Below, piece by piece: positions 16,220 through 63,973 of a DNA stretch of 64,000 nucleotides (position 1 is its first letter; each line of letters opens with the position of its first letter). Below the pieces are notes generated by a model. The model was not told where the DNA came from. It made no database searches and was given only the letters and a program-made list of their open reading frames with translations. The stretch is from NCBI GenBank assembly GCA_000004985.1, contig GG738923.1. One strand, given 5' to 3'. The translations under genes and the position numbers were made by a program. The DNA comes from Naegleria gruberi (Eukaryota).

Positions 16220-17290
16220 TTATTGATCGAATCGTTGAGTGTATGGTGTTTCAATACCAATCTTTTTAAGGGCATCAATTGGTAAGGCAAAGGTTGGATC
16301 AATAGTCTTTAAACCATACTTGTCTCCATAACCTAATAAACTCAAACCACCAATTCCAAAGAAGGTGTGGAATACATCAACCATATTATTTGGTCTATCA
16401 CTGATACCTCCCTTTTCAGTGTCTTGACAATTGCAAATGTAGTCATGTAATTTTTCAGCATTAATCCAATGAACACGATCCATAATTCCCAAAGCACTTA
16501 AAACCCACCACGAGTAACAGACATCTGAAAGTTTTTCTGGTCTACCATTGAGACCTCCATTTTCGCATTGTCTTTCACACAACCACCATGAAAGAGTATC
16601 ATGATCAAATCTATCCAATGCTTTGGCAATTGACAAGGCACCAACACAAGTAAAAATTTGTCCAGCATGTGATTCAGCTCCAGGACAAACACCAAATCCT
16701 CCATCAAAGTTTTGGCATGAAAGTACATAATCTACAGTTTTTTCTACATTGATATATTTCTTATTATTGATCTTGTCACCTCTATAATTTGAACAAGTTT
16801 CAAGAAGACCCAATAATGCTAAACAATTGAGTGCACAATAACTAAATCTTGTGTCAATTTCTCCCCATTTATCTCCTGAAAAACTACCATCTTCCTTTTG
16901 TAAAGATCCAATAAATTCACCAATTTTTTCAATTTGTTCAAGAGTTAAAAACTCTTCAATATTACTTGTCAAGAGAACCAATAATTGAACAGCTGATAAT
17001 GTATACAAAATATGAGCATCATGATTAGGAGCTCCAGCAAACCCACCAACATCAGCATGATAACTATCTCTAATAAATTGCAAAATATGTTCTCTATTCA
17101 TTTTCGATGATTCACTCATCAAATCCATACCTGTTAATCCCCAATACATTCCCGACATTCTCAAATGTTCCGTAACACAATACTCGAAGGTTGTTTGTTC
17201 CTTCTCCTCTAAATGTTGAATATAATCAATGTGTGCATGTTTGGCAAATTCTTGTACTGAAGATGATGGTGATGTTTGTTGTTGACTCAT
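16220..17290 (-). CDS. Rab geranylgeranyltransferase (GGTase-II) beta subunit.
   Basis: Intronless 356-aa ORF with prenyltransferase alpha-alpha toroid repeats (GGFGVCPGAESHAGQIFTCVGAL, GGLNGRPEKLSDVCYSWWVLS). Its N-terminus matches RabGGT beta (HIDYIQHLEEKE...HLRMSGMYWGLT). Confidence 0.85.
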   Translation of the reverse strand: MSQQQTSPSSSVQEFAKHAHIDYIQHLEEKEQTTFEYCVTEHLRMSGMYWGLTGMDLMSESSKMNREHILQFIRDSYHADVGGFAGAPNHDAHILYTLSAVQLLVLLTSNIEEFLTLEQIEKIGEFIGSLQKEDGSFSGDKWGEIDTRFSYCALNCLALLGLLETCSNYRGDKINNKKYINVEKTVDYVLSCQNFDGGFGVCPGAESHAGQIFTCVGALSIAKALDRFDHDTLSWWLCERQCENGGLNGRPEKLSDVCYSWWVLSALGIMDRVHWINAEKLHDYICNCQDTEKGGISDRPNNMVDVFHTFFGIGGLSLLGYGDKYGLKTIDPTFALPIDALKKIGIETPYTQRFDQ

Positions 17291-34493: not shown

Positions 34494-36052
34494 TTAAAGG
34501 TCTGAAAGTTGTTCAACAGCTTCCTTGATTGGTTTTGGGAAATACTTGAGTGTGAATGTCATTTCTGTACTTTCGGTAATGTTAATTCTGTGACATTTTC
34601 CAACGAGTTTCAAAAGACATTTGCAAAAGTTTTGAATGATTTCCATTTCATCATCAACCTTTTCCAAGTCAATTCCTAAAATATTCTCAATCAGTTGAGG
34701 AATAGTGGAATCTTCTTCTTGACCATCTATTTCAAGGGAAATGGTATCCCTTTCCTCTTCTGTAAAGGCATAAAGCATTTCATGTTTCAATGAAATTTCA
34801 GTTAATTTCCCATTTGCCAATTCAAATACAGCAGTTGCAAAAAATCTTTCCTCCTGAATGTATTCTGTAAAACCAATATAATAAGCTTCATGAATCGTGT
34901 AATACTTGAGCTTTGATTTAAGTTGTTGGAACATGGTTTCATCAATGTTGATATTGAAATCACGATTAAGCCAAGATTCCTCGAAGAGGAACAAGTTATG
35001 AGCCTTTCTTGCAGATTGTTTCAGAATTTCACTTCTGATCATGTCGAAATATTCCATTTTCTGTGAGAAACTCAAATCAGAATGGACAATCGGATTGAGA
35101 ATCATCTCTAAACATTTCAATCCTTCTTGTACTTCAATACTCTCGGCTGATTTGTTGAAAGCATCATCGTCTTTAGATTTCAATTCCTTAATCATACTCT
35201 TCATGACATTTGAATTCGTATCAACCATTGGTTCCATGCAACAATATTCTTTAGCACCAGCACATGTCATTAAAAAAGTGAGAAATGCTTTCCAATCCCA
35301 TTCACTTGGAATTTCTAATTCTTTCATAACATTGTTAATTGCTTAATGTCAATTTTACCACTGCCCATTGGTTCATCTTCCCAAGTATAGTAATAATTCA
35401 AATACCAAATAAGATTCTTCTCTTGAAAATTTGAATCTCTCACTTTCAAATCATAACTTCTCTCCAAATTATCCACTCTAGTATTTGGTCCATAAACATA
35501 ATGTTGAGTAAAGATCATAAACTCTTTTGATTTCTTTAAAATTTTCAATTCTGATCTTCCTCCCTGAGTTTGTGAAAAAACTCCACCCACATATGAATTG
35601 AACGAAACAATTCCACTCTTAAATAAATTGGAATAAGTCTTATTCATGCAGAGTACGTTAAAATTGGTATCATTTTCTAATAGATATTGAAAATAGGATA
35701 TTCTATCATCAAGGACCATGCAATTTCTAATTTCTGCATTAACTTTCAGCAGACAACCTTGCAAAAAATCACAAGATTCATCCTTTACTTTTGCATTCAT
35801 TTTGGATAATCTATTCAAAAAGAATAATTCATTATCATTGGATTCAATAGATTCGGAAGAAATTCGTAATTCCTTGTTGATTGATTGGTTGACCAATCGG
35901 AATGTTAAAACTTCTCTGAAGGTGAGAAAGGAGTAGACATTTAACAACACAGCACTATTGAACCATGAGGAGTGATCGTGTGTTGTTGATTTTGCTTTTT
36001 TAGATTCGGATTGGGAAGATTCGTCTGTTTGCTTTCGTTTCATTTTTTTCAA
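34494..36052 (-). CDS. Unknown protein, or two abutting ORFs with an ATGA stop/start overlap at 35324-35327. Probably one gene carrying a 1-nt frame disruption.
   Basis: ORF 35324..36052 (F-box-like N-terminus, NSAVLLNVYSFLTFREVLTFRLVN) ends ...LTML with a TGA that overlaps the ATG of ORF 34494..35327. There is no canonical intron at the junction. Confidence 0.3.
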
Positions 36053-37735: not shown

Positions 37736-38569
37736 TTAATAATTATAGGGTGAGAAAGAAAAAACGGCACCTTTGCAAAGTTTAAAGGATGGATCTTCTC
37801 TTGATATTACAAATGGATTTTGAGATGATTTTGAAATTCTTGGAATCCATGAGACATGAACACCAAATGCTCTGGAGCATCCATTGGAATATTTTGTAAT
37901 CTCTAATGCTGAGTTAAAGTTGGATTTCTTGTAATAAATCAATCCTTGGCAGTTGTTACTGGTACAATAGGAAAAGCCATCATTTGAAATTTTGATTAAT
38001 ACTTCATGAGAGGAAATGAGTGGGAGAGTAATACTTGGTGAACAAAACAGGAAATAAACAAGTGAGATTCCAATTGATTTCAATTCTGCTATGTAACTGT
38101 GAATATAATCGTCCAATTTGGCTAGTCCAATAAGTGTTAAAGAAATGAAATAGTTCACTTTCAATTGGGAACATGTCATTAATGAATCTTCTTGGTTATC
38201 GTTCTGTGTAACGACCCATTGTAAATTATCCAAATAATAAAATTGTTTTAAAAAGGAAATTGCAGATGTTGAATTTCTCAAATATAAATCCATTCGAAAC
38301 TTGTTCCAATCCTTCTTCTCCACAAGTGCAAGATCATTTAATTGTACATATCCTTTACGTAATTCATTTGATGTTATATGTTCGATCCGATCGGGTCTTG
38401 GAGCATTCCTAAACCTTTCCGATAATACACGTTTTTGTAATCTTGTAATTGTTTTTTTCCAAGTTTTGTTCACTCTCTTGAATTTCCACTGATAGAAGTA
38501 TGGAATGAATCCAAGAATGATATCTAATAAATCATCATAAATGTAAAACTCTAGTTGATCTTGTTGCAT
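37736..38569 (-). CDS. Unknown protein with an F-box-like N-terminus.
   Basis: 277-aa ORF. Its N-terminus (LLDIILGFIPYFYQWKFKRVNKTWKK) is F-box-like. Confidence 0.3.
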   Translation of the reverse strand: MQQDQLEFYIYDDLLDIILGFIPYFYQWKFKRVNKTWKKTITRLQKRVLSERFRNAPRPDRIEHITSNELRKGYVQLNDLALVEKKDWNKFRMDLYLRNSTSAISFLKQFYYLDNLQWVVTQNDNQEDSLMTCSQLKVNYFISLTLIGLAKLDDYIHSYIAELKSIGISLVYFLFCSPSITLPLISSHEVLIKISNDGFSYCTSNNCQGLIYYKKSNFNSALEITKYSNGCSRAFGVHVSWIPRISKSSQNPFVISREDPSFKLCKGAVFSFSPYNY

Positions 38570-38759: not shown

Positions 38760-39986
38760 CTACTGAACAGTACATTTCTTCTCCTTGTGGTTCTTGTTTG
38801 TTTCAATTTTTTGTGGGTTTTCCAAAATGTGCAAATGAGTATGTGTCAATAATCCAAGTCTCTTATCGAAATCAATTGTTCCTTCGCCTGTTTTTGCACT
38901 TGTTTCAATAAACGAGACAGCTCCTATTGCTTTTGTAAATTCAATTCCTTCCTCTTTTGAAATTGGTTCATCAACAGTAGTAGAATAAAACAAACTATTC
39001 CAGTAGAGTGAATCTTTGAGATCGTTCTTTGTGGAAACAACAACAAATGTAGCGGTAGGAGCACCAAGAGTGCATTCCCACATCAAATGCTCAACTAAAT
39101 ATTTCAAACTTGAAAAATCATTGATGGCATAGTTCATTGTAAAAAGATTTGTCTGAGGATAAGAAAGTGGTCGCAATCTATCATAATCTTCTCCACCTGC
39201 TGTGTCCCAATATGCAACAGAAAAATCTGCTTGAGTTTCAATACCATCTACTATGCACTGTACATGCTCCGTTTTTACAAAACTGTCAAATACAGTTGGT
39301 GTGTAATCTTGAGGAAAGGAATGATACCCAACCCTATTCAAGAGACAAGTTTTTCCAACAAATGTAGCACCCATAGAAACCCATTTGAGATAATGATAAC
39401 CGGTTATTGGTTGACTTTTTGGTTCTAATCTCAGTGGTTCTTGGAGAGGTGTTTGAATGGATGACTCTTCAATAAATATTTGTTGAGCAATTCTCTTTCT
39501 TATAATACTTTCACATTTAGTATTTTTAAAAGTACCATTCTCTAGGGCTATTTTTGAAATATTATCACTAATTGATCTAATATATGATATTCTCTTTTGT
39601 CTCTTTTCTTGGAAAACTTTCCAATTATTTTCATCAATTCTCTTCCAAATTTCCTTGATGAATCGAAATCGGTAATTTCCTTCTGTTTCTTTCCATCCAA
39701 TTTTCGTACACAAAACATTGTTAATTAATTCCATCTTGTTATTGATTAAATCTTTCCAAAACCAATCACTCCACGAATAAATCATCAAACATTTTCCGAA
39801 ATTAATTGTATTGATCAAAGTTTGATTATAAAATTCGTTTTGAATTTCCTCAGATTGTGGACGATAGAATAAACTGGCCAAACCATTTAATTCTACCCGA
39901 GAGAGAAACTCCAAAATATAGAGCATTACATTTTGATCGAGTTTGTTAATAGATGAAAAGAGTTCCTTCTCTGTTGATCGTTTCAT
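38760..39986 (-). CDS. F-box-like N-terminal domain fused to a divergent Rho-family small GTPase domain.
   Basis: N-terminus: MLYILEFLSRVELNGLASLFYR. The C-terminal half is a Rho/Rac-like G domain: KWVSMGATFVGKTCLL (G1), TPTVFDSF (switch I), YWDTAGGEDYDRLRPLSYPQT (G3, with Gly in place of the catalytic Gln), VVSTKNDL (G4), ETSAKT (G5). Confidence 0.6.
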   Translation of the reverse strand: MKRSTEKELFSSINKLDQNVMLYILEFLSRVELNGLASLFYRPQSEEIQNEFYNQTLINTINFGKCLMIYSWSDWFWKDLINNKMELINNVLCTKIGWKETEGNYRFRFIKEIWKRIDENNWKVFQEKRQKRISYIRSISDNISKIALENGTFKNTKCESIIRKRIAQQIFIEESSIQTPLQEPLRLEPKSQPITGYHYLKWVSMGATFVGKTCLLNRVGYHSFPQDYTPTVFDSFVKTEHVQCIVDGIETQADFSVAYWDTAGGEDYDRLRPLSYPQTNLFTMNYAINDFSSLKYLVEHLMWECTLGAPTATFVVVSTKNDLKDSLYWNSLFYSTTVDEPISKEEGIEFTKAIGAVSFIETSAKTGEGTIDFDKRLGLLTHTHLHILENPQKIETNKNHKEKKCTVQ

Positions 39987-42295: not shown

Positions 42296-43380
42296 TTACA
42301 ATCCTAAAAGTTGTTTCTTCTTGAGTTGGAATTCTCTTTCAGTGATAATTCCCTTGTCTCTTAAATTACCAAGCTTTTCCAATTCATCCAAATTTGATCC
42401 AGAACTTGATTTGCTTGATGTTGAAGTTGATGGTTTGATTTTAACAACTTCATTCGAGATGGAACGACCAGTGTCGTGCTTGATTGAACCACCAGTTTGT
42501 TGAGAGAAGACTCTTGAATCTCCAGTATTATTGACCTTAACAACTTCATGTGAAATGGAACGACCAGTGTCGTGTTTGACAGATCCTCCTGTTTGTTGTG
42601 AGAAAACTCTTGAATCACCAGTGTTATTCACTTTAACAACCTCCTTTGAGATTGATCTTCCAGTATCATGCTTAACAGATCCACCAGTTTGTTGTGAGAC
42701 AGCTCTAGAATCTCCAGTACTCTTGACCTTAACAACTTCATTAGAAATTGATCTTCCAGTATCATGTTTAACTGAAGCAGCTCCAAATTGTTGACCAACT
42801 TCAGCATTTGCTTGTCTCAATTGTCTTTCAGTAAATTCAATTTCCTTCTTATCAGAAATCTTCAATCCCAAAGTAGGTAAATTATATCCAACTCTCTTCT
42901 GAACAACTGATCCAAAACTATATAAGGCCATAATTACGAGTGGAATGTTTTTTCCCTCATATAAATCAACACTCATAAATGTGTTATGAGTATCTAAACC
43001 TAATTCTGCAGCTGCCTTCAAGAAATAACCAATATTCTCCATACACATGAATGGCATCTTACCAGAGTTGATGGTTTTCACAATTCCTGGTTTAATCTTG
43101 TTGGCAAGTTTACATAATAAAACGCCATCTTTGAGTGATTCTTGAAAGTCGTTGGAGGAGAATTTGGTGCCAGTGACTGCTTCGATCCATTGTCTGACTT
43201 CTTTTTCTTTCTGTGGATCGTGTTTTCCTGCTTGTTTTTTGGCCTTTCGTATAGTTTTAGTTTTTTAGGTTGGAAAGAGAAAGAAACTTACTAATTCCTT
43301 GTCTAAACCGTAGACTGGTAAACCATTCTTATCATGAACGGTTGCTTGGCTTTTGTTGGTGTAGTGAGACATTTGGTGTA
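42296..43380 (-). CDS. Calponin-homology (CH) domain protein with four tandem 32-aa repeats and a SHOCT-like C-terminal motif. It has one or two introns at its 5' end (about 43082..43300).
   Basis: The CH domain reads ...KIKPGIVKTINSGKMPFMCMENIGYFLKAAAELGLD...NIPLVIMALYSFGS (compare calponin/transgelin LENIGNFIKA). Upstream in-frame exon sequence (KAKKQAGKHDPQKEKEVRQWIEAVTG...) lies on the minus strand at 43100-43260. The repeats are VKHDTGRSISNEVVKVxxTGDSRxxSQQTGGS, four copies. The C-terminus is LDELEKLGNLRDKGIITEREFQLKKKQLL. Confidence 0.55.
42437..42790. repeat. Four tandem copies of a 96-bp coding repeat inside the CH-domain gene.
   Basis: The unit ttaacaacttcat..gaacgaccagtgtcgtg..ccagtttgttg..gaatctccagt recurs with period 96 at about 90% identity. 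Confidence 0.8.
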
Positions 43381-43634: not shown

Positions 43635-44297
43635 ATGCAACGAGTATTCATTCCCTTCATTGTTGGTTTGTTCTGTTTATTTGTAACTATTCGAAAGGTT
43701 TCTGGAAACAATTCAAACTTTGAGAATTATTCGAAAGTTGAAGATGTAAAACTTCCATTGAATTGTAGTACTAGCATGTCAGTTGTGTTTCCAACTGAAT
43801 TGTTATTGCAATCTTTCTTACATGAAAAACATTCGAATAGCAACTTTACTTCTCTTTGGATAAATTTCATGATCGCCTCGAAAAGGGAAGGAATCGAATT
43901 GGCAGAATTTGGATTAAACTCTCAAAATTCGAATCAAGAATTTCTCTCCTTAATGCAAGAAATGAAAAATAACGCAACCGAAACCAAAACTAAACTAGAA
44001 GAATTACTTTTCACTCTAAATTTACCTACAATGAATGAAATGCAAGCACTAGTCTATGGAAACGATTGTTCTCTAAGGGCAGTTCCATTAGATTCCATTC
44101 GAGGTCCATGCGATTTACTCTTCATTTCAATTCATCGTATGTCCATGACCAAAACCATGAATCTTATGGTTATGGCATTGAACGGAGTTGACCAAAGAGT
44201 TGTTTCGATTGCTTACAATGAATTGATTACTTCTTCAAAAACAATTGGTAAACTTTTGCAGTTATCCAAAAGTTTACAATGTTATCAAACTTTGTAA
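43635..44297 (+). CDS. Secreted 4-Cys protein, paralogue A of a tandem pair. Novel family.
   Basis: Signal peptide MQRVFIPFIVGLFCLFVTI. Shares a conserved core with the next gene: KLPLNCSTSMSVVFP, NDCSLRA, RGPCD, IAYNEL. Confidence 0.5.
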   Translation: MQRVFIPFIVGLFCLFVTIRKVSGNNSNFENYSKVEDVKLPLNCSTSMSVVFPTELLLQSFLHEKHSNSNFTSLWINFMIASKREGIELAEFGLNSQNSNQEFLSLMQEMKNNATETKTKLEELLFTLNLPTMNEMQALVYGNDCSLRAVPLDSIRGPCDLLFISIHRMSMTKTMNLMVMALNGVDQRVVSIAYNELITSSKTIGKLLQLSKSLQCYQTL

Positions 44298-44457: not shown

Positions 44458-45147
44458 TTGCTATTCGAAACACACAAGAAAATGAAAATAATTCTCATTG
44501 CAACCTGTCTCCTTCTTGGAGCCATCCTTGTTTCCTGCCAGCAACAACAACAACAAGGTACTGATCAAACAAGCTCAACCTCTTCCAATCAATCCAACGA
44601 TATCAAACTTCCATTGAATTGCAGCACCAGCATGTCAGTAGTCTTTCCAGCAGAAATAATTCTACAAGCCTATCTTGAAAGTGACACTGCCAATGTTACA
44701 GCTCTTTGGCTCAATATCATGCTAGCTTCCCAAAAACAAGGTGCCTCACTCACTCAATCAGCCATTTCCAAATATTCCTCCAATTCTCAATTAGTTTCAC
44801 TTTTACAAGAATTGAATGCAAACATGACTCAAATGGAACAACAACTTTCTGGATTATTCTCATCTTTGCAATTGCAACAATTACCTGACATTCAAAATCT
44901 TACCTATGGTGATGATTGTTCATTGAGAGCTGCTACAGTTGATAATTTGAGAGGTCCATGTGATTTTATATTTGTCTTGATTCATAGAATGGCAATGGCA
45001 AAGGTTGTTAACTTGTTGGCCATTTCTGAAGGTGATATTAATCAACAAGTTGGTGATATTGCTTACAATGAATTGGTCAATTCATCCAATACTATTGAAA
45101 AATTATTGCAAATTGCAAAGGCATCCAATTGCTATGCCCAACAATAA
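44458..45147 (+). CDS. Secreted 4-Cys protein, paralogue B of the tandem pair.
   Basis: Signal peptide MKIILIATCLLLGAILVSC. About 40-45% identical to 43635..44297, with the four Cys conserved. Confidence 0.5.
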   Translation: MLFETHKKMKIILIATCLLLGAILVSCQQQQQQGTDQTSSTSSNQSNDIKLPLNCSTSMSVVFPAEIILQAYLESDTANVTALWLNIMLASQKQGASLTQSAISKYSSNSQLVSLLQELNANMTQMEQQLSGLFSSLQLQQLPDIQNLTYGDDCSLRAATVDNLRGPCDFIFVLIHRMAMAKVVNLLAISEGDINQQVGDIAYNELVNSSNTIEKLLQIAKASNCYAQQ

Positions 45148-56346: not shown

Positions 56347-57696
56347 TCAGTCAGGTCTGATAAATCCTAAAGCGAACTCTGATCTATTAGATATTGGATA
56401 AGCGACACAATGCCCTTCCTGAATAATTTGTTTAAAATTTTGCATTGTTTCTGCCCTAAAGACATGCTTTTTACATTTTGTACAAAATCTCTTTTCATCA
56501 GCATAGTCAATTCGTTCCAATTCAGAATATTTCATAGGGCACTCGAAAATCCATTCACAATTTTCTATAAATGATTCTTGTTTTTTTACAGAAAAGGATG
56601 GTTTAGGAATTTTAAATTTTTCATCTGTTTTTGGATCTATTGTTCTCAAAATTTCTCTCACAAGTGGTAAACTTGTTGGTGAATGAATTTGTAAATGTTG
56701 AATTCTTCGTTTCATAACAATCATCCAATTTTTCACATTCAAACTCTGTTGAAATCGTGGGAAATAGAACAACACCATTGGTTTCCAAATTGTATTTTGA
56801 ATCAAATCAACATGATACTCGTCTGGATTCTTTTTGAAATGTTCCTCATCGAGAAATGATCGATACATGCCTTTGAAGGTCATTGACAAGTAGAACAACT
56901 CCTTGAGTGTTAGATAGGAAGCAACTATGGCAGTAACTTCAATTATTGTCTCTCCATTTCTAAATAAAATTCCAATATCTTTGTAAACATTTGGCGTATT
57001 TTCAATAATTGATATTACAATATTATTATCTTCAGTCAATTCAGCTGAATCTGCAAATCCACATTTAAAACTTCTCAAATGTTGGTAATCTGAAATAATT
57101 TCTCCATTTAATACATTTGCCAATTTCTCCAAATCTTGTCTGCTAATTCCTTCTTGGTAAATTATCCCAAATTTATCAAATAATTTTGAAACTAGTTGTT
57201 CATTTTCAAATAGAGAAATAACCATCTTACATCCCATCTCATTAATGATTTTTCCTATTGTAATATTATTTCTTCTTTGTTCTCTAATAGCAGCATCTAT
57301 TGCTGTATAATCCGATCCATAAATCTCCAATGAGGTTAAGGTTGGGAATTTAAAGTCAATTAATGCAACTGACACTTTTTCAATTCGTTTTCGTTTCGTA
57401 TTTGAAGACTTGTTTCTATTAACAATTTCAATTTGATTACAAAAAGTTGTTTTGAAAGAACTGGTTGCATAGAAAAACTTCAATTCATAACTTGGAACAC
57501 TAGTTTCTAATAGATGAATATTGACATTCCCATTTGATGATGTTATTTCAATGGATTGAATTTCTTCTTTAAAGTTGAACAACTCAATCAATTTTCTCTT
57601 CAATTCTTGAAACTTGTCAGGATCTACGCTGATAACACCTGGTGGTTGATCTTTTTCCATTTTTTTTAAATCTATTTCGGAAGAATTACCGATCAA
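56347..57696 (-). CDS. Unknown protein. Its start is probably at the internal Met.
   Basis: 449-aa ORF. It overlaps the upstream gene's stop by 11 nt unless an internal Met is used. Confidence 0.35.
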   Translation of the reverse strand: MIGNSSEIDLKKMEKDQPPGVISVDPDKFQELKRKLIELFNFKEEIQSIEITSSNGNVNIHLLETSVPSYELKFFYATSSFKTTFCNQIEIVNRNKSSNTKRKRIEKVSVALIDFKFPTLTSLEIYGSDYTAIDAAIREQRRNNITIGKIINEMGCKMVISLFENEQLVSKLFDKFGIIYQEGISRQDLEKLANVLNGEIISDYQHLRSFKCGFADSAELTEDNNIVISIIENTPNVYKDIGILFRNGETIIEVTAIVASYLTLKELFYLSMTFKGMYRSFLDEEHFKKNPDEYHVDLIQNTIWKPMVLFYFPRFQQSLNVKNWMIVMKRRIQHLQIHSPTSLPLVREILRTIDPKTDEKFKIPKPSFSVKKQESFIENCEWIFECPMKYSELERIDYADEKRFCTKCKKHVFRAETMQNFKQIIQEGHCVAYPISNRSEFALGFIRPD

Positions 57697-59155
57697 ATAC
57701 TTGTTTTTTCTTTTTTGAAAATGAGAGAGTTTGTTGGCCTCTATCTAATCTTTTTAAATTGGAGTTGTTTTCTTTCCTTTTGTGCACCATTTTTGGAAAA
57801 TCAACCAAGTTTACCAATTGGTCATTCATTTTCCACTTATTAATATATTTCTCAATCTTTTCATTCTCATAGTCAAGTTTAAAAACTAAGGATCTAATGG
57901 TGTTTGATAATTGTGAAGACGCAATGTGGTCTATTGCACGGAGTGAGAACATTTCACTTTTAAAAGAAAGCTGTTCAAGTTTTTTCAAATAAGTGCAATT
58001 ACTAAGATATTCAATAGATAGATCAGTTACACTAGTTGACGATATATTTAAATAAGTGAGAGGGGATTCTCTTTCCAAATTTTCAACAAATCCTTTTGTA
58101 CTCTGGTCATCCAACATTGTTTCACTTACTTCTATTGATAAATATGTTAAATTTTTCAAATATTTTGCAATGGATTGAAGAGCATTCTTTGGAGAGTTAA
58201 TAAACAACTGAAGATGTGTCAAATTTGTTGAGAGACGACCTGAAAACATTTCATTCAAATCATCGAGAGTAAAATTAATCCCATGTAAACCTTTTTGTAT
58301 AGATATACTGGTCAAGCTTGTCAAATGTATACTTGTTCCTAACAATTTCATAGAATTCAAATCACTTGATGAAATATGATTCAATTTGATTTTTTCCACG
58401 TTTGACATATTCTCTGTATCAATATCTTTCAAATTTACCTTTCCATATCTTATTGATATTTCCTTCAGTTCTTTCATTTGCGTTATCAGCTTGAAACATT
58501 CTGGTGTGGTGTTTGCTACAGACATTTGTTGTAAATGTTTCATATTTTCATAAATTATTTGCATTTGTTCATAGTCTATTGTATTGAATACAGAAAACAC
58601 CTTCAATTTCCCCAATAATGGATTGCTAGCTACCTTTCCAATTCCACTCTTTGTAATATCAGACCAAATTGTCAATTTCTCCAGATTTCCAATATAAGGA
58701 CAAGCACTAATTGCCAAAGCAACATTATAATCGCACCCAACAACTTGATATCCTAAAAGAAACAAACTCAATTCGGTCAATTGCTCCAACTCTTTACATT
58801 TGAATAATTGACACAATTCATTAGAATAGTTCATTTGTGATTTTCTAGATTCAATTTTTAAAACTTTCAAGCTTTTCATCTCTGATAAATTCTCACAAAA
58901 TTCCACCACACATGATTCATCTTCAACGAGAAAAGAAAGTGATTGAATATTTTTCAATATGAATGATGATGATCGGAATAAAGAAACAAGAATTGAATCT
59001 CTGATTTGGATCATGTCATACAATTTACATTTAATCACCTCGGATCGCCATAGCTTGGACACCATTGAACAATTGATAATTATTTGTTTCCATGGGAGAA
59101 ATTGCATTATTTGAAAGCAAACATCTGCTGGAATGAACACCTCTTGTTGTGTCAT
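57686..59155 (-). CDS. F-box-like plus leucine-rich-repeat protein.
   Basis: The N-terminus IPADVCFQIMQFLPWKQIIINCSMVSKLWR is F-box-like. Multiple LRRs follow (LTHLQL, LTSLTSISI, LKELKEISI). Confidence 0.5.
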   Translation of the reverse strand: MTQQEVFIPADVCFQIMQFLPWKQIIINCSMVSKLWRSEVIKCKLYDMIQIRDSILVSLFRSSSFILKNIQSLSFLVEDESCVVEFCENLSEMKSLKVLKIESRKSQMNYSNELCQLFKCKELEQLTELSLFLLGYQVVGCDYNVALAISACPYIGNLEKLTIWSDITKSGIGKVASNPLLGKLKVFSVFNTIDYEQMQIIYENMKHLQQMSVANTTPECFKLITQMKELKEISIRYGKVNLKDIDTENMSNVEKIKLNHISSSDLNSMKLLGTSIHLTSLTSISIQKGLHGINFTLDDLNEMFSGRLSTNLTHLQLFINSPKNALQSIAKYLKNLTYLSIEVSETMLDDQSTKGFVENLERESPLTYLNISSTSVTDLSIEYLSNCTYLKKLEQLSFKSEMFSLRAIDHIASSQLSNTIRSLVFKLDYENEKIEKYINKWKMNDQLVNLVDFPKMVHKRKENNSNLKRLDRGQQTLSFSKKKKQVFDR

Positions 59156-59501: not shown

Positions 59502-59874
59502 TTACGTTCGTGGTGAAAAATAAATGTTTCTTTTTGATATTGTACATAGGAAGTTTCTAAGAATTCCTTAATATTATGAACTCTCAATGACCATCTCTCA
59601 GGAAAGATGAGTACGTGAATTTTCAACAGCAGTAACATGAAGCATCATATGAGTAGCTTCAAATTACGACAAAGCAATTATTATCCCGGAGTATCTTGTC
59701 TCCGTAACAATCATCATTAACATTGTGGACCATTGGTTCTGGATGATATTTGAAATAACCATCTTGTGGAGAAAAGATAATGAAAGGTACAAAAAAGGAA
59801 TGAATTCGGAAGGATAGCTACAATTCATTCTCTCCAACAATTTTGTGAATCATTGTTTTGAACTTTAATAAAAA

Positions 59875-60453
59875 ATGGCGCAAGATCAACAACCAACACT
59901 TCAAAATCAAAAAACTCCAACAGCACAGCAACACAAGCAATACATTATTACCAAAATATTAGTAGCATTTGTGGCCTTGCTTCATGTTTTCTTTCTAATT
60001 TTGGAAATGTTTTTATGGACTACACCTTTTGGACGTCAAATATCTGGTTTTCCAGAGGCATTTGCACAAATGACACAGGTATTAGCTGCCAATCAAGGTC
60101 TATATAATGGATTTTTGGCCATGGGATTGATTTGGTCAATTTTTTCAAAACAGTTTTACTTTGAATTGCAATTGTTTTTCCTCGGATGTATTGTGATTGC
60201 TGGAATATTTGGAGCTGCAACTGGAAGTATTGCAATTTTAGGAATTCAAGCTGCACCTGCACTTGTTGTGTTGCATGTGGTGTTATTGGAGAGATTTCTG
60301 TTGCCTTTCCTTAAGAAAAGATGGGCATTGAGAAGGGAACAAAGAATGGCTAAGATTGGAGATGAGAATTCAAATATGAGTCTTTTAAGTTCAACAGATA
60401 CACAAGGAGTTGAATATCAGCAATATAATGTTCAACAGGAAGCCATTATTTAA
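59875..60453 (+). CDS. Small 4-TM membrane protein (DUF1304-like).
   Basis: 192-aa ORF with four hydrophobic helices (ILVAFVALLHVFFLILEMFLW, LYNGFLAMGLIWSIF, FFLGCIVIAGIFGAATGSIAILGI, ALVVLHVVLL). Confidence 0.45.
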   Translation: MAQDQQPTLQNQKTPTAQQHKQYIITKILVAFVALLHVFFLILEMFLWTTPFGRQISGFPEAFAQMTQVLAANQGLYNGFLAMGLIWSIFSKQFYFELQLFFLGCIVIAGIFGAATGSIAILGIQAAPALVVLHVVLLERFLLPFLKKRWALRREQRMAKIGDENSNMSLLSSTDTQGVEYQQYNVQQEAII

Positions 60454-60668
60454 TAAAAATTGTAATGTAAATCAATATTGAATATTCAAAATTAGAAACA
60501 AGGATACCAAACTCTGTAATTGCCCAAACTGGAAATTGAAAGAAATTTCACATTGGCACTTGGGTTATTAATTTTTTAAGATCTGCCATTTGATATCAGG
60601 GATTGAACTTGTAAATACCCTCCTAGTAGGAATTACAATAGGAAACTATTCCATGCTTTTACAAAAAA

Positions 60669-61703
60669 ATGAAACAACTTAATGAGGACGAATTATTGTT
60701 AATTTTTTCATATTTAAATTTTTCAGAGGTTTTAAATGTTTCGTTAATGAAAAATCGGAAAGTGTACAATTTGATTGGATCTTGTCGCGCGTGGAGGGAA
60801 ATGTATTTAGATTGTATATCTATTATTCAGGAATTTAAAAAGTTTGATGAAAGATGTTGTTGTTCCGAGGAGGCTGGAAAACTTGCTCTTTCCTCTGATT
60901 TTAGAAAATTATATTTTGAACAGATGAGAGAATATTATTTACGTTCGGATATGAATGAACAAGCACTTGTGGAGAGAATTGAAGAATTGGAATCGAACAG
61001 GAAATCTTCATCAACAACTGTTTTTAGAGAATATCATGAATTATTGAAAGATTATCCAAATATCAAAAGTAATGACTTGTATGTTAAATTTATGGTGGTT
61101 GGAAGTAGTTGTGGAAAGACTTCTTTTTTGTATCATTTGAGTTTGGGACTGCATCCTCCTTATTCGAATGTTGCTTCTAATTTGCAATACTTACCAAGTA
61201 TTCATGATGGATATTCCACAAATTTGATATTTGGATCTTCTTTTTGTAATATTGGATTTTGGGATACATCGGGAAAATCAGAATATAAAACACTTAGACC
61301 ATTGAGCTATCCAGGGACAGATGTGTGTTTTCTTTGCTTTGACTGCATGAGCTATGATTCATTGGATTTAGCGATTAATACATTTTTGGAGGAATTAACA
61401 AGTCATATGAAACAAGAAGGGAAAACTTTTCCTATTGCTTTGCTTTCAACAAAGCATGATTTGCAGCAAGATAGAAAGGAAGTATTGAAATTACTAATTT
61501 CAAAACAACAAAAACCAATTAATAGTCAACTTGGAGAAAGAATAGCAAAAGCAATCGGATGTGTAACCTATTTGGAATCCATTCTTCTTCCATCTAAAGA
61601 TTACTTTAAGATAATTTTCAATATTTCAAGAATTGAGAAACTTCCAGTAACAACAGAAAAGCAATCCTTGCTACAGAAACTAGGTAGATTTTTCAAAAAG
61701 TAA
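60669..61703 (+). CDS. F-box-like N-terminal domain fused to a divergent Rho-family GTPase. Paralogue of 38760..39986.
   Basis: N-terminus LLLIFSYLNFSEVLNVSLMKNRKVYNLIGSCRAWREMY. G domain: FMVVGSSCGKTSFLY (G1), FWDTSGKSEYKTLRPLSYPGTD (G3, with Lys at the catalytic Gln position), LLSTKHDL (G4). Confidence 0.6.
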   Translation: MKQLNEDELLLIFSYLNFSEVLNVSLMKNRKVYNLIGSCRAWREMYLDCISIIQEFKKFDERCCCSEEAGKLALSSDFRKLYFEQMREYYLRSDMNEQALVERIEELESNRKSSSTTVFREYHELLKDYPNIKSNDLYVKFMVVGSSCGKTSFLYHLSLGLHPPYSNVASNLQYLPSIHDGYSTNLIFGSSFCNIGFWDTSGKSEYKTLRPLSYPGTDVCFLCFDCMSYDSLDLAINTFLEELTSHMKQEGKTFPIALLSTKHDLQQDRKEVLKLLISKQQKPINSQLGERIAKAIGCVTYLESILLPSKDYFKIIFNISRIEKLPVTTEKQSLLQKLGRFFKK

Positions 61704-61723
61704 CATTATTAATTATTATTGGT

Positions 61724-63973
61724 TTACAATTCAATAGTTGAAAGAACAGTTCCTGGAGAAATCAACTCTTTACAATCCTCTTCTCTATCTTCAAAAAGTA
61801 AATCGGTTGGAGAGTTGACCATAGGGGAGTCCATATTTGGAGATCCAATGCTCTCTGTTTTGAAAATAGTAGCAACATTAGAAATTGGTTTCTCTCCCAA
61901 GGCAGTAATAGTCCATTCATGATTATAGATTGGATCATTGCATTTGTGTTTTTGGAGAAGCTTTTTGAAATTCTTACGTTTTCCACACAAGAATAAAATA
62001 TCACTCGCTTCAACTTTTCCAGTTCCGACAGGATTAGTGTAGACATATCTGTATAGTTTGTCATATCTGTATCTACTGACACCCAATAGAATGAGATCTT
62101 TTTCAAAGCAAGCATCAACAAGCTCTGAAACTGGTAAATTAACAAAAACTGTTGGAACGGGAACTTCAAAGATTATAGATTGAGATTCTGTAGCTGAAAA
62201 CTCATCAGCAAGCATTTGGTCCACCAAATCAACAACTCTTCTATTATGGAAGGATTGTGCCAACAGCTTACTAAGGAAGGAAGAACTTGGGAAAATCTTT
62301 CCAGAAATATAAAAATCAGAAAACAAACAGAATTGATCAAAATCATCGATATCATAATCTAATACTTGCTTTTCTCTTAACAATCTCACCTTTTGATAAG
62401 TTGGAATACCTTCGTGTTGGAAAAACTTCAAATTGGATCTGTTTACCAATTCGAGAAGGTACTTCTTTCGAGGATCAATTACAGCCATACCCAAAGCCAA
62501 TTTGATTGCTTCAGAATCGATTGTGTACTCATTTTCGAAAGAACCAACTTCATCCTCATCACCATCATTTCCTGTATTCATCAACGAGGCATCTTGGGTA
62601 AAGTACATGACAGTTTGGGCAGATGAGAAACCAGCTCTTCTCAAATCATGAGATTTGATTGGATTACCAGAAATAAAATAGACATCTTTGAAATATTTCA
62701 ATCTTTCGTAGAGAGAGTTGAAATACTTGTCAACAAGGTGGGTCATGAATACTATTGGAGTGTTTCTATTTCTTCTCTGAATTGATCTAACCAATGAACA
62801 AATAATTAATGGTTGTTGGAATTCTCCTAGAACAAGGATATGATCTTTCAATTCAAATGGAACTTTGAAACTTGAAATGAGGAATTGTTGTTTAGTTCTT
62901 GGAGTTCTTGTCATGCTATAGCTAGCAATAATGGAATTGTAGAATTCATCTTCCTTTTCTTTCCTTTCTTGCTCTGATTGTATTTCTCTTATTTGTCTCA
63001 GCTGACTTCTCATTTCTGCAAAGCAAGGTTCAGTAGCGATGAGTTTGAGTAAAATTTCCAAGTGAAGATTATTCATTTCTTCCTGTTGTTCAGTTTCAAT
63101 TTCATCACTCAACAGATAGATGTCAGCATTATGACCTCCAACAGAGTATGTCAATCCATATCTGTTTGATTTTCTATTATCTTTCTTTTTCTTATTGTCC
63201 ACTTCATTTTCTTGTTTTTCTGTAATCTTTAATATTTCGATTTGACCTTTGGTGAGCTCTTCGTGTGACTGTTCTCCAGCATTCTTCAAGTATTCTTCGA
63301 ATCTAGATTCAAAGTACTCGATTTCAATAGCATCTTCCTTTGTTTTTTCTACACCATAGTCCATTCTTGAACTTTTCCTGGAAATGTATTGATCCTTGTC
63401 TCCTGTTTGAGTGAATGTTTGAACCTGTTCAGCATGCTCAATGCTCTTAGCAATACAGAAGCATTTATCACCATCCTTGATGAGGTATCGAGATGGATTG
63501 AGGAATATTCTTCCCTGCTTATCTTCTAAAGCATAGGCAGCAATTTCGCATTTCTTGAGCAAGGTTCTAGCAGCATCAACGAATAAACTTCCAACAAATG
63601 CCTTACTGAACTTTACACGATAAATTTCACAATTCAAACCCTCTGAATATTCCACAATCCACTTGATATCATTTTCAATTGATGTAGTATTCTTTCCGGA
63701 TTGCATGTCAAACTTGTGGTGGTCTCCTGTGAGTAATCCCTTAGGAATCTTGTCCATTTCAATATCAACATCAGCACCACTCAACAAGTTGAACAAAAAA
63801 GAACACAAGCCACCAGAGCTTGAAGAGCCTGAAAGAAGCTTTGTACAGAAAGACTCATTACAAATCACAACCTTGGCACCTGCCTTAATGGCGTAATGTT
63901 TGGATTCAATCAAGTTGATTTGGGCATAGACCTTCAAATTTTGATTAAAGTTTTTAAGAGCAATAGTGGTCAT
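61724..63973 (-). CDS. C-terminal cytoplasmic RCK/gating-ring region of a Slo/BK-type K+ channel. Partial: the 5' exons with the TM/pore lie beyond the window end.
   Basis: Tandem RCK-like segments (ILVLGEFQQPLIICSLVRSI..., VVICNESFCTKLL...). The C-terminal block RYVYTNPVGTGKVEASDILFLCG parallels BK [23 protein letters not shown]. The ORF stays open to the window edge. Confidence 0.5.
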   Translation of the reverse strand: MTTIALKNFNQNLKVYAQINLIESKHYAIKAGAKVVICNESFCTKLLSGSSSSGGLCSFLFNLLSGADVDIEMDKIPKGLLTGDHHKFDMQSGKNTTSIENDIKWIVEYSEGLNCEIYRVKFSKAFVGSLFVDAARTLLKKCEIAAYALEDKQGRIFLNPSRYLIKDGDKCFCIAKSIEHAEQVQTFTQTGDKDQYISRKSSRMDYGVEKTKEDAIEIEYFESRFEEYLKNAGEQSHEELTKGQIEILKITEKQENEVDNKKKKDNRKSNRYGLTYSVGGHNADIYLLSDEIETEQQEEMNNLHLEILLKLIATEPCFAEMRSQLRQIREIQSEQERKEKEDEFYNSIIASYSMTRTPRTKQQFLISSFKVPFELKDHILVLGEFQQPLIICSLVRSIQRRNRNTPIVFMTHLVDKYFNSLYERLKYFKDVYFISGNPIKSHDLRRAGFSSAQTVMYFTQDASLMNTGNDGDEDEVGSFENEYTIDSEAIKLALGMAVIDPRKKYLLELVNRSNLKFFQHEGIPTYQKVRLLREKQVLDYDIDDFDQFCLFSDFYISGKIFPSSSFLSKLLAQSFHNRRVVDLVDQMLADEFSATESQSIIFEVPVPTVFVNLPVSELVDACFEKDLILLGVSRYRYDKLYRYVYTNPVGTGKVEASDILFLCGKRKNFKKLLQKHKCNDPIYNHEWTITALGEKPISNVATIFKTESIGSPNMDSPMVNSPTDLLFEDREEDCKELISPGTVLSTIEL

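Follow-up and report, generated by a model that had tools for sequence, protein, structure and literature searches.

The sequence at 60669..61703, on the plus strand of the window (the whole 64,000-nucleotide stretch of Naegleria gruberi contig GG738923.1 that we analyzed), is one intron-less gene encoding an F-box, a helical linker and a Rac-like G domain. The F-box–linker–Rac architecture has already been reported in the supplement of Herman et al., 2021 (BMC Biol 19:142; PMC8296547), and the gene itself is already annotated. What is new here is a corrected start together with membership of that family, a relic CaaX box with apparent read-through, and the extent to which the G motifs have decayed under apparent constraint.

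Gene model and translation start

A sequence-only reading of this DNA had proposed that an F-box and a Rho-family GTPase are fused within one continuous ORF. This is borne out, with the GTPase proving Rac-like and the F-box being recognized through a family profile, and all of the motifs that had been picked out (GSSCGKTS, DTSGKSEY, TKHD and the ending LGRFFKK) lie in the ORF. Two features define the gene model:

60669..61703, plus strand: complete single-exon coding sequence, with an ATG start, 344 aa and a TAA stop
60801..60803, plus strand: Met45, where the RefSeq model XP_002669712.1 (beginning MYLDCIS) starts, inside a helix adjacent to the F-box

The first ATG of the ORF is at 60669, in a frame that has been open since an in-frame stop at 60639-60641. 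The public model, XP_002669712.1 / EFC36968.1 (“small GTPase [Naegleria gruberi]”, 300 aa), is 100% identical to the 344-aa ORF from Met45 onward but covers 60801..61703 only; its first 44 codons are missing, which removes most of the F-box. The exact 344-aa product was not found in the protein collection searched, and an independent gene caller gave the same 344-aa ORF on an environmental contig. Translation probably starts at 60669 rather than at Met45, because a conserved motif (LN-D----IFS-L in the family alignments) is located 5’ of Met45, because a family HMM matches the upstream segment and the Pfam and PDB profile results point to an F-box there, and because the ATG at 60669 lies in a context (AAAAAAATG) found at the first ATG of most long ORFs in the window, unlike the context of the Met45 ATG at 60801 (GGGAAATG). 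A scan with bacterial promoter and terminator models, applied to what is a eukaryotic locus, gave nothing exceeding shuffled controls.

The F-box and the linker

The N-terminal part of the protein comprises:

60669..60821, plus strand: F-box, aa 1-51 (MKQLNEDELLLIFSYLNFSEVLNVSLMKNRKVYNLIGSCRAWREMYLDCIS), from a leave-one-out family HMM and a family profile against PDB
60822..61076, plus strand: helical linker, aa 52-136, from family alignments and AlphaFold helices at 39-58, 66-74 and 78-113
60888..60935, plus strand: family-conserved [DN][FY][RK] motif (SSDFRKLYFEQMREYY, aa 74-89), from family alignments

Taken alone, the protein stays below the Pfam thresholds. The F-box-like model matches aa 9-45 at E=0.026, with 20.6 bits against a cut-off of 24.3, and the F-box model reaches 16.7 bits against 20.5; overall, the F-box scores of this protein lie at 14.7-20.6 bits against the cut-off of 24.3. 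The F-box assignment thus depends on the family profile. An HMM built from the F-box segments of 12 N. gruberi relatives, with this protein left out, matched it over HMM positions 1-50 (E=6.5e-9, 30.5 bits), and the next-best of the 342 ORFs in the window reached only 0.0017. When a profile of all 13 family segments was run against all PDB sequences, 25 of the 26 matches were F-box proteins, including FBXO3 (1.5e-9), FBXW21 (4e-8), FBXO42, Skp2 (1e-4), KDM2A/B and beta-TrCP. Taken singly, 9 of the 13 family segments match Pfam F-box models at E<=0.1.

The most conserved motif of the family, which lies 5’ of Met45, reads LNEDELLLIFSYL here versus LN-D----I-SFL in relatives. The proline of the canonical LPxE is replaced by Asn, as it is in most family members. 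In the AlphaFold model this segment forms three short helices (6-14, 18-25 and 30-36; pLDDT 83-87), in a fold that resembles the F-boxes of Skp2, FBXO3 and cyclin F, and the predicted N-terminal helices superpose on the Skp2 F-box at 1.2-1.5 Å over ~40 columns. In a Foldseek search with the isolated N-terminal model, most of the 40 matches were F-box chains in SCF complexes (rmsd 1.1-1.9 Å over ~40 columns); the domain is small, and no match had E<0.001, the best being 0.27. By family profile, with the predicted fold as qualitative support, the first 51 residues are a genuine F-box. In the linker, the [DN][FY][RK] motif of this protein reads SSDFRKLYFE.

A Rac-like domain with degenerate nucleotide motifs

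The remainder of the protein, up to its C-terminal tail, is a GTPase domain with the following landmarks:

61077..61628, plus strand: Rac-like GTPase domain, aa 137-320, from Pfam Ras, PDB Rac1 and Foldseek matches
61101..61124, plus strand: G1/P-loop GSSCGKTS (VVGSSCGKTS = aa 143-152), Lys16 and Thr17 kept
61161..61205, plus strand: eight-residue insertion followed by an altered switch I, YLPSIHD for YIPTVFD (T35S, F37H)
61263..61286, plus strand: G3/switch II DTSGKSEY (WDTSGKSEY = aa 198-206), with A59S, Q61K and E62S relative to Rac1
61449..61460, plus strand: G4 TKHD (STKHD = aa 260-264), an intact [NT]KxD
61467..61514, plus strand: Rho insert (QDRKEVLKLLISKQQK), aligning with Rac1 ~122-135 without deletion
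61581..61589, plus strand: G5 position, where ILL replaces SAL/SAK and the motif is lost, from alignment with Rac1

The similarity to Rho-family GTPases is not due to chance. Pfam Ras matches aa 140-304 (E=2.9e-17), the best phmmer matches in PDB are Rac1/2/3 (Rac1 at 2.6e-24) followed by Cdc42, and Foldseek with the AlphaFold model retrieves Rac3, Rac1, TC10, Cdc42 and Rho structures at a target TM of 0.8-0.88. The top 50 Foldseek matches all belong to the Rho family, with target TM values of 0.77-0.88 except for one Rac1 fusion construct. The Rho insert is helical in the model (helices 264-268 and 270-278), and a four-residue insertion relative to Rac1 precedes beta-5.

The motifs themselves have departed considerably from the Rac pattern. 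The earlier reading had described a degenerate P-loop, a DTSGKSEY switch II with Ala59 changed, and a retained G4, and we find all three (A59S and Q61K in switch II, an intact TKHD). The P-loop, however, shows more than substitution: it aligns as GS-SCGKT, one residue shorter than GDGAVGKT, with the Gly12 position absent, and BLAST places a gap there likewise. F28H lies just upstream of switch I, and AlphaFold pLDDT falls below 50 at aa 162-174, in the region of the switch I insertion. Measured against the canonical set (GxxxxGK[ST], T35, DxxGQ, [NT]KxD and SAK/SAL), only G4 is canonical, while Lys16, Thr17, Asp57, Thr58, Gly60 and TKxD are kept. Since G1, T35, Q61 and G5 are non-canonical, the domain is predicted to be an atypical or pseudo-GTPase member of the Rho family and not a canonical switch.

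A relic CaaX box and a C-terminal extension

The protein ends ~25 aa past the G domain, as ...KQSLLQKLGRFFKK* (also quoted as ...SLLQKLGRFFKK), without a CaaX box. The one feature of interest in this tail is:

61665..61700, plus strand: relic CaaX SLLQ (aa 333-336) and 8-aa extension KLGRFFKK, aligned to the CxLQ of relatives

In a family alignment of 12 sequences (A2), a CaaX box stands at the end of all 11 others (KKCxLQ, CxLM, CIIC or CILC), this protein being the sole exception. Its EKQSLLQ aligns with the KKKCxLQ of relatives and is then followed by KLGRFFKK. The TCC codon of Ser333, at the cysteine position, is one change from TGC (Cys), and the AAA codon after Gln336 (CAG) is one change from a TAA stop; the environmental strain is identical over both relic and extension. 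The simplest reading would be that an ancestral CLLQ-stop has lost both its cysteine and its stop. The proposal that the protein lacks a CAAX box and is likely not prenylated is thus supported as far as the box is concerned, and without the cysteine prenylation is not expected.

Family membership and distribution

Herman et al. found that, of the additional domains carried by Naegleria Rab, Rho, Ran and Galpha GTPases, the F-box is the commonest (their Additional file 4), and proposed GTPase-dependent ubiquitination (PMC8296547). Their Table S8, which we used as the comparison set for BLAST of N. gruberi Rho-family sequences, supplies revised sequences for many N-terminally extended “Rac” genes of N. 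gruberi. XP_002669712.1 is entered there simply as “Rac”, without a revised model or an additional domain. That accession occurs once in the table and so is matched with no N. fowleri gene.

With its full N-terminus, the protein aligns collinearly over aa 1-313 with an F-box-flagged N. gruberi Rac on ACER01000078 (E=2.9e-28) and over aa 4-304 with XP_002678060. Leaving the gene itself aside, no relative exceeded 34% identity in an exhaustive HMMER search over 1.84 billion representatives. Of the top matches listed, those aligning from residue 2-4 to ~305-315 are N. lovaniensis XP_044551010 and XP_044553212, Willaertia magna KAL9651027, KAL9654563 and KAL9648013, N. fowleri XP_044568862 (with a Kelch propeller in front) and one environmental protein. 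A further index-based homologue search, using the 12-sequence family alignment, returned 11 proteins only and no additional family member.

In the tree, the protein sits alone on a long, unsupported branch. Judged by these alignments, the F-box–linker–Rac cassette is common to Naegleria and Willaertia, and the gene is a highly divergent, species-specific member of that family, without a close orthologue.

Proposed function

The account that we consider reasonably probable, from the motifs kept and lost, is that this F-box–linker–Rac protein is an SCF-linked, Rac-like partner-binding module, here in a degenerate copy. Through its F-box, the protein would attach to Skp1 in an SCF (Cul1-Rbx1) ubiquitin ligase, and its Rac-like domain would be the interaction end, recruiting Rho-effector-like partners for ubiquitination; RhoBTB proteins act in this way with Cul3. 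In Ras-superfamily chemistry, loss of Gly12 and Gln61 abolishes hydrolysis, and with Gly12 deleted, Gln61 replaced by Lys and G5 gone, GTP hydrolysis would be very unlikely. Some guanine-nucleotide binding may survive, as Lys16, Thr17, Asp57, Gly60 and TKxD are kept, and the Rac-like domain would be a locked or nucleotide-insensitive module. Since the CaaX cysteine is lost and eight codons are read past the former stop, the protein should be soluble, unlike its prenylated relatives.

By analogy, a more specific version can be put forward, though only tentatively. The Rac-like domain might be a constitutive, nucleotide-independent and membrane-free SCF substrate receptor, a counterpart of RhoBTB–Cul3 that captures Rho effectors or regulators for degradation; it would then represent a natural ‘locked’ variant in a family of prenylated, possibly GTP-regulated members.

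A second strain bears on whether so divergent a gene is still in use. The 344-aa ORF is intact on a contig of genomic metagenome DNA (ERZ929261, L001), where it adjoins the same DUF1304 gene, and the contig is 99.45% identical to the window over 60653..61749. The ORF differs by five substitutions, four synonymous and one non-synonymous (T253P), and the sole difference upstream of Met45 is synonymous, at codon 33 within the F-box. Given 205 synonymous and 827 non-synonymous sites, this corresponds to P=0.0065 under neutrality and a dN/dS of ~0.06, on five substitutions only. With a 4:1 ratio of synonymous to non-synonymous changes, the gene still looks constrained, which argues against a dead gene. 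The same ratio and the intact ORF in the second strain count against the alternative, which we judge unlikely, that the gene is on its way out, a redundant duplicate in the >80-member N. gruberi Rho family drifting to a pseudogene. So do the persistence of a 344-codon ORF in an AT-rich genome and the retention of the F-box core, Lys16, Thr17, Asp57, Gly60 and TKxD. What lends that alternative some weight is the isolation of the gene (no relative above 34% identity in the HMMER search, a single entry in Table S8 with no N. fowleri orthologue listed, and a long, unsupported branch), together with its accumulated lesions (P-loop deletion, Q61K, G5 loss, the switch I insertion, replacement of the CaaX Cys by Ser, and read-through of the stop). 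Herman et al. also describe birth-and-death evolution, with pseudogenes, in related F-box GTPase clades (PMC8296547). Relaxed constraint would account equally well for the long branch and for the loss of several motifs.

It is also rather improbable, in our view, that the F-box serves turnover of the GTPase itself, making the protein a short-lived, SCF-dependent, self-ubiquitinated signaling protein that recruits no substrate, as was proposed for TbFRP. F-box proteins are often auto-ubiquitinated within SCF, and the GTPase is the only candidate substrate-binding domain recognizable by Pfam. The authors of the TbFRP study tied its F-box to rapid proteolysis of that protein (PMC3593210). Yet a hydrolysis-dead, non-prenylated Rac-like domain would be an unlikely switch worth regulating, and the conserved helical linker suggests a fixed geometry between F-box and G domain, as in substrate receptors.

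That the RefSeq model is right, with translation starting at Met45 as in XP_002669712.1, the upstream 44 codons being 5’ UTR and the product a plain atypical Rac with a helical extension and no functional F-box, seems very improbable even though Herman et al. left the model uncorrected and listed no extra domain (PMC8296547), since those 44 codons hold the family’s most conserved motif and fall within the leave-one-out HMM match at aa 1-51, the frame stays open after the stop at 60639-60641 with 60669 as its first ATG, the sequence around 60669 is the usual start context in the window and that around 60801 is not, the only substitution there in the other strain is synonymous, and an independent gene caller gives 344 aa.

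Comparison with known fusions

The protein can be set beside several known fusions. The closest are the Naegleria F-box–Rho proteins of Herman et al. (XP_002671699.1, XP_002678060.1 and the ACER01000078 gene), which have the same order of parts, both family motifs (LN-D----I-SFL and [DN][FY][RK]) and the Rho insert. Set against them, the 344-aa protein has a shortened P-loop, Q61K, no G5, a C-terminal extension and no CaaX cysteine, the last two being peculiar to it among the 12 aligned members. The same F-box–linker–Rac cassette, alignable end to end, also occurs in Kelch–F-box–Rho proteins of Naegleria, Willaertia and environmental samples (for example N. fowleri XP_044568862 and Willaertia P0062 and P0093). 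In those, a Kelch propeller stands at the N-terminus, the P-loop is canonical and a CaaX box is usually present, and the 344-aa protein has no Kelch region.

RhoBTB is an atypical Rho GTPase fused to BTB domains and an adaptor of Cul3 ligases. It resembles the present protein in joining a Rho G domain with catalytic substitutions to a cullin-RING adaptor and in lacking a CaaX box, which would make it a functional analogue. The arrangement differs, with an N-terminal F-box (Skp1/Cul1) here and a C-terminal tandem BTB (Cul3) in RhoBTB, and Pfam found no BTB domain in the 344-aa protein, which is thus no RhoBTB itself. Herman et al. cite RhoBTB in this context, and Naegleria has separate, true RhoBTB genes (PMC8296547).

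In the trypanosome protein TbFRP, from another discobid lineage, an F-box likewise lies upstream of a small, Ras-like GTPase domain, but a FYVE domain is present as well, and the G domain resembles Rab18, not Rho; its authors report no Naegleria orthologue (PMC3593210), so it is an independent fusion.

Apart from its truncated public model the gene is ordinary, because it belongs, as a divergent member, to a fusion family that had been described in Naegleria before. XP_002669712.1 should begin 132 nt upstream and be labeled an F-box–Rac fusion, which lengthens the published Naegleria list by one member not flagged there. This is an incremental gain: the architecture is published, and for an atypical Rho none of this is surprising in its mechanism. 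F-box–GTPase fusions are nevertheless a lineage-specific wiring of small-GTPase folds to the ubiquitin system, and comparing this copy, which lacks Gly12, Gln61, G5 and the prenylation cysteine and still looks selected, with the canonical, prenylated members of the family could reveal whether the family needs GTP cycling and a membrane anchor at all.

The second Rho-like gene and the neighborhood

The window contains a second Rho-like gene and other genes with F-box or F-box-like segments:

38760..39986, minus strand: Rac-like protein of 408 aa with a long N-terminal extension, XP_002669751.1* in Table S8 (corrected model)
57686..59155: F-box gene, passing the Pfam F-box threshold, no LRR in Pfam
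37736..38569: F-box-like N-terminus, just under the Pfam threshold
35324..36052: F-box-like N-terminus, weak match

The sequence-only reading had paired the genes at 38760..39986 and 60669..61703 as paralogues on opposite strands roughly 21 kb apart. Positions and strands are as described, but the two are not a close pair: a pairwise alignment gives 28% identity, confined to the GTPase domain. In BLAST against the 344-aa protein, 24 of the 28 N. gruberi Rho-family sequences with a match outscored the 38760 gene. That gene is most closely related to XP_002676342.1, which lies on another scaffold and is 49% identical to it from end to end. These two form a clade with the ACER01000104 gene at 98% bootstrap. 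As the 38760 gene belongs to a different, well-supported subfamily, the pair is not a local duplication; tandem duplication of the two Rho-like genes was considered and is ruled out by the tree and the BLAST ranks. By these comparisons the two loci are distant members of a family of >80 genes, sharing a scaffold by chance.

There are nonetheless likenesses between the 344-aa protein and this group (38760..39986, XP_002676342.1 and ACER01000104). Both have a Rac-like domain and a long N-terminal extension, which in the 38760 group bears an F-box-like LD-N---YILEFL motif, and catalytic residues are replaced there too (G12T and Q61G in the 38760 gene, on the same scaffold). The similarity is limited to the G domain, however, the clade is separate, and the 38760 gene has kept its switch I and G5 as well as a CaaX box, CTVQ. 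The N-terminus of the 38760 gene contains a large insertion and matched neither Pfam nor the family F-box HMM.

The suggestion of a locally expanding F-box neighborhood found no support in an all-against-all BLAST of the window ORFs, in which the F-box-bearing genes were alike only in a short motif and in the GTPase match. Nor do LRR/F-box genes directly adjoin the 344-aa gene as had been thought. The nearest F-box gene, at 57686..59155, is indeed close by, but it lies one gene away, beyond the DUF1304 gene, and its LRR label was not confirmed, with no LRR in Pfam and no match of its protein to PDB sequences. A giant-virus or prokaryotic origin of the window was considered and rejected, given its N. 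gruberi identity and its eukaryotic genes. The window is otherwise ordinary for N. gruberi, with genes for a SNF2 helicase, Hop2, a prenyltransferase beta subunit, RGS and G-beta proteins, a cathepsin, a carbonic anhydrase and a BK-channel fragment.

P-loop deletions and the Rac-like gene at 38760

Among the Rac relatives, XP_002676342.1 (P0005), a relative of the 38760 gene encoded on another scaffold, has a P-loop that is also one residue short, reading GM-NVGKT as against GATFVGKT in its relative with 49% identity. Single-residue P-loop deletions thus have more than one origin among these F-box-type Rac proteins.

The 38760 gene itself (38760..39986, minus strand), which encodes a 408-aa Rac-like protein, is adjoined by two small genes:

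35324..36052, minus strand: small gene with an F-box-like N-terminus (E=0.0017 with the family HMM, a profile built from F-box segments of N. gruberi F-box–linker–Rac relatives)
37736..38569, minus strand: small gene with an F-box-like N-terminus (Pfam F-box, 18.3 bits, under the 20.5 cut-off)

Beyond that N-terminus, no further domain was recognised in either. The exact 408-aa product of the 38760 gene was absent from the protein collection, and the gene is carried as a corrected model, XP_002669751.1*, by Herman et al. (2021; PMC8296547, Table S8), which indicates that its public model is also unlike the full ORF.

Flanks of the F-box–Rac gene

The F-box–Rac ORF is 99.45% identical between the window and the environmental metagenome contig L001, whereas identity in the DUF1304 gene and intergenic DNA beside it (window 59616..60652 compared with L001 44..987) is only ~95%, with indels that include a ~106-bp gap at 60522..60652. 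This abrupt shift in divergence may mark the edge of a haplotype or a recombination breakpoint, or else the metagenome assembly may be chimeric at this point.

The downstream neighbour is convergent, with only 20 nt from stop to stop:

61724..63973, minus strand: C-terminal region of a BK/Slo-type potassium channel (BK_channel_a, Slo-like RCK)

Since the start of this ORF as listed, 63973, lies near the end of the window, the channel gene probably runs on outside it.

Other genes in the window

43635..44297 and 44458..45147, both plus strand: tandem ORF pair
42296..43081, minus strand: calponin-homology and SHOCT ORF
16220..17290, minus strand: beta-type subunit of a protein prenyltransferase (Prenyltrans in Pfam, 2e-92)

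Only two clear sets of local paralogues were seen in the window, the EGF-repeat ORFs and the tandem pair, whose members share 41% identity across 226 aa (E=1e-63) and in which no Pfam domain was found. In the calponin-homology/SHOCT ORF, only part of a calponin-homology domain is present, a 'GGSVKHDTGRSIS-EVVKV' unit occurs as four tandem copies, and SHOCT (Pfam, 1.5e-8) is the C-terminal domain; this mixture is unusual among eukaryotic proteins. Enzymes of the prenyltransferase family modify CaaX-type C-termini, and a C-terminus of this type has been lost from the F-box–Rac gene; the presence of the prenyltransferase subunit and that gene on one scaffold is a coincidence.
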